DNA of 64,000 bases from Escherichia coli (GCF_009931435.1 NZ_CP043414.1), one strand, 5' to 3'. Numbered from the stretch's first letter, positions 26,677-29,104 are shown. The notes: generated by a model from the letters alone, not told the origin. Program-made: numbers and translations.

Positions 26677-27126
26677 TCAATTATTCATAATAAATTTCAT
26701 GGTGGCAAGAAATAGTTTCTTTTCTTCATCACTCATGGCAGCAACGTTTAACATGTTGTCATCAAAATTATTGATGATATTTTTTAATTTCAGTAACTGC
26801 AAAGGAGAAAAATAGTCACTCCCGATGAGATTACTCAATACCAGCAATAGCTCCCCATCATATAAATAGCCCACCATAAGATTAATCTCTATCATCTCAA
26901 TTGCTTTTTGTACAGCAAGCGCCGGTAAGATATTCTGACGAAGCATTTTGGCAATATCATTTTCATCCAGTTCATCGGGTGTTTTATCTAATAAAGAATT
27001 ATACCAGTTTATTAAACCACTTTTGAAAGCGAACGAATCATATTGCAGGTGATAAATCTGTTTTAGGGTTTCTTTATTTTTCAATTTATAGTGCCTTTGT
27101 TTGCTATAATTTTTCTGAAATAACAT
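26677..27126 (-). CDS. hypothetical protein, 149 aa, AT-rich, predicted helical; immunity-protein-like by context
   Basis: ORF with ATG overlapping the stop of the upstream gene (TGATG); strongly AT-rich codon usage unlike flanking core genes. Confidence 0.6.
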   Translation of the reverse strand: MLFQKNYSKQRHYKLKNKETLKQIYHLQYDSFAFKSGLINWYNSLLDKTPDELDENDIAKMLRQNILPALAVQKAIEMIEINLMVGYLYDGELLLVLSNLIGSDYFSPLQLLKLKNIINNFDDNMLNVAAMSDEEKKLFLATMKFIMNN

Positions 27127-27593
27127 CAGCGAGTTTGCTCAGGTGCAGGGATGACCGAAATTGTCATGTATTTTTTCAGTCTGGCTTCTCGTTTCACACC
27201 TTTCGGATCTGAACCAAAAGGAAGCGTCAAGCATGGTGAGTCAACGGTTTGGATTGTCCAGAGAGAATCACCAATGAATCTGAAATTGATGCTATCCGCT
27301 GTAACGGATAATCCCTCAAAACTTCCCGTCGCATACTCATTACCCAAACGTACGGTCTCTTTAACTCCATCATTAACATCGATAAGGACAATTGTCAGTG
27401 ATTCCTCAAAAATAACGTCATCCGTCAGAAAAAGGATATAACGCTGGTCATTAACCTGAATTGCCGCTTCCAGTATTTGCCCTGGTACAATAATACCTGT
27501 GTTATTGCCATTGAGCACAACGTCAGACTGAGCCTGAGATAAATCAGTCGCTTTGTGAACCTTGACCAACGATATCGAATTAACCTGTTGCAT
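27126..27593 (-). CDS. hypothetical protein, 155 aa (start at MQQVNSISLVKVHKATD; the 186-aa track ORF is probably over-extended)
   Basis: ATG at 27593 two nt downstream of the stop of the glycine-zipper ORF; first 31 codons of the track ORF overlap that ORF in another frame. Confidence 0.6.
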   Translation of the reverse strand: MQQVNSISLVKVHKATDLSQAQSDVVLNGNNTGIIVPGQILEAAIQVNDQRYILFLTDDVIFEESLTIVLIDVNDGVKETVRLGNEYATGSFEGLSVTADSINFRFIGDSLWTIQTVDSPCLTLPFGSDPKGVKREARLKKYMTISVIPAPEQTR

Positions 27594-27595
27594 AA

Positions 27596-27736
27596 TCAAT
27601 TCCACAAGCGCCCCATTTCCCATGCGGCAAGTGCACCGCCGACAAAGCCGCCAATAAGTACGCAAACAGGTGCACCTGGACCACACACCAATCCTGCCAT
27701 CGCGCCGCCTGCGACAGCTCCGGCAATAATATTCAT
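27596..27736 (-). CDS. small glycine-zipper membrane peptide, 46 aa (MNIIAGAVAGGAMAGLVCGPGAPVCVLIGGFVGGALAAWEMGRLWN); candidate small toxin or C-terminal remnant of a polymorphic toxin
   Basis: translated by hand from the minus strand; repeated GxxxG/AxxxG motifs, two hydrophobic segments; weak Shine-Dalgarno; open frame continues 35 codons upstream to a TAG at 27842-27844 without a start codon. Confidence 0.4.
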   Translation of the reverse strand: MNIIAGAVAGGAMAGLVCGPGAPVCVLIGGFVGGALAAWEMGRLWN

Positions 27737-27919
27737 CCGGGTACGACTGCCAGTGGTTTTAACAGATTTGCGCTCACCGTTACGTATCCTGCCACCACTC
27801 AGGTTGCAGACGCGGCAGTCACAGCCTTGACGGTGTTGAAACTAAAGTTCAGGTGATAGTCTGATGTTCATAGTTTGAGCATTATCCCCTGACAGAATCA
27901 AATCAAGCAGTGTCAATGA

Positions 27920-28177
27920 TCACGTGTATATATCATTTAAAGCATTATCAAGCCAATCTTCCATGTTTTTAATTTTAGCCCGCGCATATAAATCATTCAT
28001 AACATCCTCATAACTCTGTCCATCATTGACCATACAATTAGCTGTATGAGGCAGAACATGTATAAAATCAGACAATATAAAACAAGCCTTTGAATTTCCA
28101 GAGTTAGCTGCAATTCTGATATCAATCAATCCTCTGGCAATCAATTTAAGAATAACATCTTGCATTTTAATTTCCAT
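27920..28177 (-). CDS. hypothetical protein, 85 aa, AT-rich
   Basis: ORF MEIKMQDVILKLIARGLIDIRIAANSGNSKACFILSDF downstream of the SUKH-like gene on the same strand. Confidence 0.45.
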   Translation of the reverse strand: MEIKMQDVILKLIARGLIDIRIAANSGNSKACFILSDFIHVLPHTANCMVNDGQSYEDVMNDLYARAKIKNMEDWLDNALNDIYT

Positions 28178-28259: not shown

Positions 28260-28613
28260 TCAAAAATATACATCATCAGCTTCTACCGAAAACTCCATGG
28301 CTCCTAAGGCACCTAAATCAATACTAAATATAGTATCACTTTCCTTAGCACTCCCAACATAGATAAAATAGCCTAAATCTCCGTCTTGACCTATCAAAAA
28401 ATAGTCAGGTTCCACTTGTTGAATATCATATGTTTCATTTCTTTCAATAAGATCAGAATAGTTATATAAATATAATGTTTCGTGCTTCTTATTAGTTATT
28501 TCATAGGTCTCACTATCTTTAATTTCTTCTATCAAAAAACGTTTATACACTGGAGGAAACTTGATTGACATGTCAAATTCAATTTTATTTATATATTCTA
28601 TAATTTTATTCAT
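28260..28613 (-). CDS. SMI1/KNR4 (SUKH)-like immunity-type protein, 117 aa
   Basis: motifs FPPVYKRFL and FLIGQDGDLGYFIYVG...IFSIDLG resemble the SUKH superfamily pattern; assignment by eye, not by search. Confidence 0.55.
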   Translation of the reverse strand: MNKIIEYINKIEFDMSIKFPPVYKRFLIEEIKDSETYEITNKKHETLYLYNYSDLIERNETYDIQQVEPDYFLIGQDGDLGYFIYVGSAKESDTIFSIDLGALGAMEFSVEADDVYF

Positions 28614-28897: not shown

Positions 28898-29104
28898 TCA
28901 GTAAAAATCACCGGTTGCCTTTTCGGCCTGATCCATCCACACCGGTTTATCGCTGGTTTTCGACCAGACGCGGTGCAGGTAGCTGTAAAAGCGGGCGCGG
29001 TCTTTCCAGAAAAGCATGAAAGGCAGCGCCAGAACGCCCGCTGCAACCGCATAAGTACGGCGTAAAAAGATAAGCCATGCAGGATATTCTCTGTAAAGTT
29101 CCAT
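28898..29104 (-). CDS. ybfA: DUF2517-family small protein
   Basis: 68-aa [71 protein letters not shown]. Confidence 0.9.

Follow-up and report, generated by a model that had tools for sequence, protein, structure and literature searches.

CdzC and CdzD of Caulobacter are glycine-zipper toxins. Other proteins with a segment of this type are TelE of Streptococcus, a toxin of the type VII secretion system (T7SS) (PMC10434224), and Tde1 of Agrobacterium, whose glycine zipper is needed for translocation (PMC10240207). Ssp6 of Serratia marcescens is an ion-selective pore-forming type VI secretion system (T6SS) effector, and its immunity protein, Sip6, has two transmembrane helices (PMC6889166). In contact-dependent growth inhibition (CDI), CdiI of Escherichia coli 536 (PDB 5J5V, chain C) blocks tRNA binding by the cognate CdiA-CT tRNase (PMC11724271). 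Here, a locus of E. coli (GCF_009931435.1, NZ_CP043414.1) was analysed in a window of 64,000 nucleotides, from whose first letter all positions are counted. Two small genes, for proteins of 155 amino acids (aa) and nominally 149 aa, lie on the minus strand at 26677-27593, directly behind a 46-aa glycine-zipper open reading frame (ORF). It is probable that the 155-aa gene is the orphan immunity partner of an unnamed two-gene toxin module and that the 149-aa ORF is an unrelated, orphan CdiI gene.

The three frames are tightly arranged. The TGA of the glycine-zipper ORF (27596-27598) is followed, after two nucleotides, by the ATG of the 155-aa gene (27591-27593), giving TGAttATG at 27591-27598, and the TGA of the 155-aa frame (27126-27128) shares its A with the ATG (27124-27126) of the 149-aa ORF, giving TGATG at 27124-27128. 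A mechanical ORF list extends the 155-aa frame to 186 aa from a GTG at 27686, with a 91-nt out-of-frame overlap with the glycine-zipper ORF that produces a Cys/Arg-rich extension. These features, including the off-frame reading of the glycine codons in the 186-aa ORF, had been pointed out in a preliminary description made from the sequence alone, and all were found where it had placed them.

By sequence comparison, the 46-aa glycine-zipper ORF is the stump of a toxin-like gene of about 240 codons. Its remnant peptide can be aligned to the C-terminal ends of proteins of 240 aa, DNA homology to full-length toxin loci begins at 27728, and the first three codons of the ORF, from ATG 27736, fall outside the homologous DNA. 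Homology upstream of this ATG was considered and rejected on the same grounds. The ORF that stops 2 nt before the homologous ATG in Enterobacter ludwigii is of 78/98 aa and shares this C-terminus. In Pantoea stewartii, the 155-aa homologue is preceded by two ORFs, of 134 and 83 aa, and one Pantoea protein spans both. A reconstructed 236-aa query retrieved 821 proteins, nearly all of the best 120 being stand-alone and about 240 aa long, and an exhaustive profile search gave 920 representative clusters at 50% identity, from Proteobacteria and beyond. The short toxin forms (57-103 aa, plus one 148-aa fragment) align as pieces of the ~240-aa proteins. Among 5,426 complete E. coli genomes, there is no copy of the full-length toxin gene, and the stump and the 155-aa gene are found together in 13.

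The glycine-zipper ORF had initially been read as an intact peptide toxin. Being the last 43 codons of a ~240-aa gene, it leaves no functional toxin/immunity pair at this locus. That the 46-aa ORF nevertheless works as a small membrane toxin, with the 155-aa and 149-aa proteins as its coupled immunity proteins, is highly improbable: the ORF is intact from its ATG and keeps the whole glycine-zipper hairpin, RefSeq lists a 46-aa hypothetical protein in one strain and the spacing to the 155-aa gene is tight, but its first codons are not part of the homologous DNA, the intact relatives are all about 240 aa and the short forms are fragments. Moreover, no consensus Shine-Dalgarno sequence is visible just upstream of ATG 27736, as read from the sequence, and the 149-aa ORF, a member of an unrelated family of CDI immunity proteins, was linked to the pair by an insertion. 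An origin as an Rhs or CdiA toxin tail was rejected as well, the close relatives being all small and the intact ones stand-alone proteins of about 240 aa.

Proteins of the toxin-like family are all-helical and end in a hydrophobic, Gly-rich hairpin built around CGPGAPVC, which is invariant (consensus ...AGLxCGPGAPVCVxIGxFVGGALAAW...) and a C-terminal window of Kyte-Doolittle hydropathy >1.4. No significant match was obtained in Pfam, NCBIfam or the PDB sequences, and in PADLOC there was a marginal match to MkoA alone (E = 0.026). In literature searches, the motif CGPGAPVC was found in no paper, and the papers listed for glycine zippers and the T6SS included none on this family. An assignment to microcins or class II bacteriocins was discarded because the Bacteriocin_IIc match is at noise level (E = 3.3) and a C39 ABC exporter is found close to just one of the loci, in Pantoea, where it is on the opposite strand.

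Two further observations concern the same family. A conserved leader of about 35 aa (MAG...GP[LV]G...N.P.[VI]DGGT[LA]....SP.PG) opens many of the beta- and gammaproteobacterial homologues (loci L035, L042, L049, L076, L078, L083 and L094; proteins P0241 and P0257) and could be a secretion or loading signal. In addition, residues 92-232 of protein P0157, zipper included, weakly match PHROG 1047, 'tail associated lysin' (E = 7e-7), and phage tail proteins may have a similar membrane-inserting segment; a tblastn search of a phage collection with one Pantoea toxin homologue gave nothing.

Pairing of the two families was scanned with one genome per species, giving 80 loci from gamma-, beta- and alphaproteobacteria and a few other phyla. 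A hidden Markov model (HMM) of the 155-aa family matched the ORF directly 3' of the 240-aa gene, on the same strand, in 74 of the 80. Of the other six loci, one lies at a contig end, one has a disrupted toxin, two are very distant copies and two belong to metagenome-assembled genomes (MAGs) from outside the Proteobacteria. Clustering of about 1,270 neighbour ORFs revealed no third recurring gene family beside the pair; a false 'family' of 23 loci in this clustering came from antisense ORFs over the toxin/partner pair, and the window itself has such a reading, a 91-aa Pro/Ala-rich ORF at 27555-27830 (+) that is antisense to the Gly/Ala-rich stretch. Pairwise distances in one family correlate with those in the other (r = 0.74), with a mean divergence of 60% in the immunity family versus 44% in the toxin family. 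The exact junction of a stop, two nucleotides and an ATG is a conserved feature: it occurs in 16 of 79 related loci, every one from Enterobacterales, while nearly all the others have spacings of -17 to +33 nt.

The partner gene also occurs in extra copies and by itself. One toxin gene is followed by two tandem 155-aa homologues in L029 and L038 (Mangrovibacter) and in L052 (Duganella), an additional unit of truncated toxin plus partner lies a few kb away in L026 and L045, and extra lone copies of the 155-aa family are found in L077 and L092. The 155-aa homologue is also kept intact in E. coli, Cronobacter and L033, in which the toxin is missing or truncated. In Cronobacter malonaticus (L006-L008, 5998-6471), a lone 156-aa homologue lies between a divergent 138-aa gene without a Pfam match and an acetyltransferase gene, with the same flanking genes in all three loci and no toxin remnant in them.

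Since the 155-aa protein is encoded directly downstream of a polymorphic toxin-like partner, it is most likely the cognate immunity protein. Traits of polymorphic-toxin immunity proteins were found in it: the downstream position on the same strand, a partner that, in a minority of its family, is fused to delivery domains, and orphan, tandem and displaced copies. The earlier proposal that both small genes encode immunity proteins is in keeping, for the 155-aa protein, with its conserved place downstream of the toxin-like family and, for the 149-aa protein, with a CdiI_3 match.

The 155-aa protein belongs to an unnamed family. A word-indexed search gave 124 relatives, all from Enterobacterales, all annotated as "hypothetical" and mostly of 152-165 aa. 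There was no Pfam match even at E <= 10, none in NCBIfam, PADLOC or PHROG, none with the PDB sequences in single or profile searches, and none with the Pfam or NCBIfam models of SUKH or other known immunity families; a tblastn search of a plasmid collection with the protein of the window also gave nothing. The AlphaFold2 (AF2) model, with a predicted local distance difference test (pLDDT) score of 86.4, is all-beta with 12 strands. Its fold neighbours are weak and propeller-like only, and the AFDB50 matches are essentially all uncharacterised proteins, apparently of the same family. The protein is predicted to be soluble, and its most hydrophobic window holds DD and EE residues. The ratio of nonsynonymous to synonymous substitution rates (dN/dS) against relatives is 0.17-0.29.

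A soluble, all-beta protein of about 150 aa that is always encoded beside a protein with a hydrophobic tail would also suit a chaperone or adaptor that keeps the zipper tail soluble before export. Eag chaperones serve the transmembrane helices of PAAR effectors in this manner, and a soluble partner is unusual as an immunity protein against a membrane toxin. This role is nonetheless very improbable. With no Pfam match at all, the protein has no match to DUF1795/Eag either, and its gene lies downstream of the toxin gene, while Eag genes are usually upstream of the effector gene. In addition, the gene is intact in those genomes that have no intact toxin, under the dN/dS values given above, and is duplicated in tandem, settings in all of which a dedicated chaperone would be useless.

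Evidence on delivery comes from the longer members of the toxin-like family. The Marinobacter proteins, of 411-414 aa, carry an N-terminal T6SS PAAR domain (NF033420, 146.5 bits against a cut-off of 124; PF05488, 1.7e-17). These PAAR fusions, with a Ser/Thr/Pro-rich linker, were seen in M. confluentis and M. shengliensis (L043 9458-10693; L044). Phage_Mu_F, PG_binding_1 and Endonuclea_NS_2 were each matched by a single member in a set of 35 long representatives, others had N-terminal regions of unknown type, and an N-terminal extension of at least 60 aa is present in 28 of 118 near-full representatives. Since one C-terminal domain recurs behind delivery domains, the partner is read as a polymorphic toxin domain.

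Alternatively, the 240-aa/155-aa module could be an intracellular toxin-antitoxin or abortive-infection pair, in which a cytosolic partner would restrain a membrane-depolarising zipper effector until phage infection or stress sets it free; the copy in E. coli would then be a leftover antitoxin. Most copies are indeed stand-alone two-gene cassettes without secretion domains, with tight gene spacing and a partner predicted to be cytosolic. They lie in variable islands with ssrA/smpB, P4-type primases, restriction-modification, SIR2/DUF87 and AbiEii genes, and many of the Enterobacterales copies are in islands beside ssrA with defence genes. Such a function is considered unlikely in view of the PAAR fusions and the Phage_Mu_F and peptidoglycan-binding matches of other long representatives. 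The 155-aa and 153-aa proteins have no PADLOC match and the toxin only the marginal one to MkoA, neither the phage collection (with the Pantoea toxin) nor the plasmid collection (with the 155-aa protein) gave a tblastn match, and extra or orphan partner copies lie among SUKH and CdiI immunity genes. Unlike in classic type II systems, the toxin gene comes first, the partner is all-beta without a DNA-binding domain or any Pfam domain, and the toxin matches no Pfam or NCBIfam family.

Several observations weigh against the polymorphic toxin/immunity interpretation. The clear PAAR fusion is limited to the two Marinobacter loci and to 1 of 150 representatives, whereas most toxin homologues, including all those of Enterobacterales, are stand-alone proteins of 240 aa without a recognisable trafficking domain, and in high-GC genomes some of the N-terminal extensions may have arisen as artefacts of gene calling. 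The sampled neighbours are housekeeping or mobile-element genes, with no T6SS genes among them. Confidence in the toxin model is low (pLDDT 62.6) and its fold matches are uninformative, and toxicity, neutralisation and secretion of the 155-aa/240-aa pair are all inferred from sequence. Finally, immunity proteins of the Sip6 type, which act against membrane toxins, are membrane proteins (PMC6889166), and a 155-aa protein predicted to be soluble fits a simple pore-former poorly.

By analogy, Ssp6/Sip6 is the closest functional counterpart of the 240-aa partner of the 155-aa family. Ssp6 is likewise small (about 210-230 aa), helical and stand-alone, is encoded outside T6SS clusters, is widespread in Enterobacterales and is directly followed by its immunity gene (PMC6889166). 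The immunity proteins differ, Sip6 being very small with two transmembrane helices and the 155-aa protein soluble and all-beta, in the 12-strand model. The Ssp6 homologue table contains genes of 636-696 nt (PMC6889166), and the gene of Serratia sp. FGI94 in it (3019347-3019985, 639 nt) is, judged by position and length, another gene than the present homologue. As with Rhs-CT, CdiA-CT and the 'specialised' effectors of the T6SS, which have arrays of orphan CT and immunity genes, the toxin domain stands alone or behind PAAR, Mu F-like or peptidoglycan-binding domains, with the immunity gene directly downstream. Further traits shared with polymorphic toxin modules are immunity genes in tandem, orphan immunity genes and intact immunity genes beside a displaced 3' fragment of the toxin. 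Unlike in PAAR-fused and other polymorphic modules, neither family has a Pfam, NCBIfam or PADLOC model, and most copies are without a trafficking domain or nearby secretion genes. In Tde1, TelE and CdzC/CdzD, as would be expected for the 240-aa family, a zipper segment drives membrane insertion or permeabilisation; these proteins use other delivery routes, and they are likened to the family by the motif.

On the polymorphic-toxin reading, the toxin would be delivered into neighbouring cells and would damage or cross the inner membrane by means of its glycine zipper, and the soluble, beta-rich 155-aa protein would bind it in the cytoplasm and neutralise it. The tight spacing of stop, two nucleotides and ATG would keep both proteins co-translated. 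As in Tde1, the zipper of the 240-aa protein might serve translocation instead. It is somewhat more tentatively proposed that the 240-aa glycine-zipper proteins and the 155-aa beta-rich proteins form a widespread, undescribed toxin/immunity family in which a soluble cytoplasmic protein gives immunity to a membrane-inserting toxin. If this is true, an unusual mechanism is implied: a helical domain that acts in the cytoplasm would be carried through the membrane by the zipper, or else the toxin would be caught by the immunity protein at the cytoplasmic face.

The start of the 155-aa gene at ATG 27593 is well supported, as had been suspected when the 186-aa ORF was described as over-extended. RefSeq gives the same 155-aa extent in sister strains (WP_001188052.1), the N-termini of aligned homologues coincide at the internal Met (MQQVNS), 22 of the 79 related loci have an in-frame stop at most 5 codons 5' of the conserved start, and the Cronobacter copies have the 155-aa homologue without a glycine ORF upstream. 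For these reasons, the 186-aa reading is regarded as an artefact of the mechanical ORF list. Relatives of 165 aa are explained by extension to an upstream ATG by the gene caller.

The 149-aa ORF matched Pfam CdiI_3 (PF18616; i-Evalue 2.7e-17, 63 bits) over residues 24-99 and chain C of PDB 5J5V over residues 36-128 (E = 2.1e-6). CdiI of E. coli 536 is a distant relative. RefSeq annotates a CDI system immunity protein of 135 aa from a TTG, and in a cassette-free strain an ATG stands in the place of TTG 27084, also giving 135 aa. The 14 extra codons consist of three from the 3' flank of the inserted cassette, ATG included, and eleven that correspond by homology to the end of the preceding gene (3') and the spacer behind it in other strains, where the stop is TAA and the window has CAA. 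From these comparisons, the native start of the CdiI_3 gene is codon 15 of the 149-aa ORF. In the closest relatives of the cassette, the overlap site reads TGATG (Citrobacter), TAACG or TGACG; the overlap is therefore not conserved. Because the native start is codon 15 and the ATG sits in the cassette 3' flank, the TGATG overlap is a by-product of the insertion junction.

Unlike in CDI systems, there is no cdiA, cdiB or CdiA-CT gene beside the CdiI_3 gene in the ybgA-ybfA gap, and the gene, with its TTG start and an upstream ATG that adds 14 codons, is considered an orphan because no cognate toxin gene adjoins. Upstream of it lies the 155-aa gene, to which it is unrelated; other strains have an 85/94-aa gene in this place. 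The two small genes, which had been presented as one coupled unit, are thus separate: the 149-aa ORF is a CdiI gene in its own right, an orphan with its probable start at codon 15, and the TGATG derives from the insertion junction. In E. coli 2017-02-2CC (L001 4817-5203), the CdiI_3 gene has an altered 3' end and encodes 128 aa, ending ...EEKNYFLPP; the orphan gene may be decaying in part of the lineage.

Table 1. Features of the ybfA-ybgA gap and its insertion, in window coordinates.
Feature	Position	Strand	Remarks
Orphan CDI immunity gene (CdiI_3), 135 aa from TTG 27084	26677-27084	-	Supported by Pfam, PDB, RefSeq and the cassette-free strain
14-codon extension making the 149-aa ORF (26677-27126)	27085-27126	-	ATG from cassette flank, rest from 3' end of preceding gene plus spacer
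611-bp cassette	27118-27728	-	Toxin 3' end, immunity gene and ~8 bp of flank; common to other Enterobacterales
810-bp segment	27119-27928	.	Restricted to 13 of the 5,426 complete genomes of E. coli (246 genomes cover part of the region only)
155-aa gene, candidate orphan immunity protein	27126-27593	-	ATG 27593, stop TGA 27126-27128; unnamed family
31-codon upstream extension of the 186-aa ORF	27594-27686	-	Noncoding in this frame; overlaps the toxin-remnant frame
46-aa glycine-zipper ORF	27596-27736	-	Codons 4-46 (27599-27727) are a 3' remnant, residues ~198-240 of a ~240-aa toxin-like gene
85-aa ORF, unknown family	27920-28177	-	No Pfam match; ends ...DIYT here versus 94 aa, ...DIELNQKNHSK, in cassette-free strains
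117-aa SUKH-1 (SMI1/KNR4) protein	28260-28613	-	Pfam PF09346, 1.6e-4; weaker SUKH_5 and SUKH_6 matches
ybfA	28898-29104	-	Start of the minus-strand gene order

The features are collected in Table 1; the order on the minus strand is ybfA, the 117-aa ORF, the 85-aa ORF, the 46-aa glycine-zipper ORF, the 155/186-aa ORF, the 149-aa ORF, ybgA and phr. One cassette-free strain, compared base by base, has 8 bp in place of the 810-bp segment. This piece would have carried the last 43 toxin codons and the whole immunity gene into this E. coli lineage, and since it brought only these codons with the intact immunity gene, the 155-aa gene is an orphan here. The identity of the 611-bp cassette is 94% with a MAG of soil Proteobacteria, 93% with Kosakonia arachidis and 87% with Citrobacter sp. 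NCU1. The left 200 bp of the segment (27729-27928) has no other copy in E. coli. In 12 sister strains, RefSeq annotates a fragment of an 'IS630 family transposase' at 27683-27802 (-), in the same frame as the Gly/Ala-rich ORF, which is probably a spurious low-complexity call. An IS630 element as the cause of the truncation was rejected, since the RefSeq pseudo-CDS shares the Gly/Ala-rich frame and the left 200 bp has no second E. coli copy. A scan for promoters and terminators gave no signal above the shuffled background.

The altered C-terminus of the 85-aa ORF is due to the insertion of the 810-bp segment. SUKH-1, to which the 117-aa protein belongs, is a superfamily of polymorphic-toxin immunity proteins. 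The gap between ybfA and ybgA is thus an array of orphan immunity-type genes (SUKH-1, the 155-aa gene and CdiI_3) without a toxin. It is a mosaic, since the cassette has a GC content of 41-56% and the small genes at its sides one of 25-35%. The gap is occupied in K-12 by rhsC, ybfB, ybfO, ybfC and transposase remnants. YbfC had been raised as a possible homologue of the 155/186-aa protein, and a comparison with YbfB had been proposed as well, but with BLASTP E values of 53 and 0.18 these presumed Rhs-associated small proteins have no sequence similarity to the 155/186-aa or 149-aa proteins and share the chromosomal position alone.

As an orphan-immunity array, the locus is ordinary in kind; the 155-aa family and its glycine-zipper partner appear undescribed. 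For annotation, two starts are corrected, to 155 instead of 186 aa and to 135 aa from TTG instead of 149. A testable function is offered for a "hypothetical protein" family of many Proteobacteria, with a partner that is a likely antibacterial toxin, T6SS-linked in at least one lineage. If a soluble protein does neutralise a membrane-inserting toxin, it would be an unusual mode of immunity, worth structural study. The orphan 155-aa protein could protect against related toxins of Enterobacter, Citrobacter or Kosakonia-like neighbours, and E. coli and Cronobacter would then retain the immunity gene alone as a defence against neighbours. The locus would be a further example of E. coli gathering orphan immunity genes at the Rhs-associated ybfA-ybgA site.

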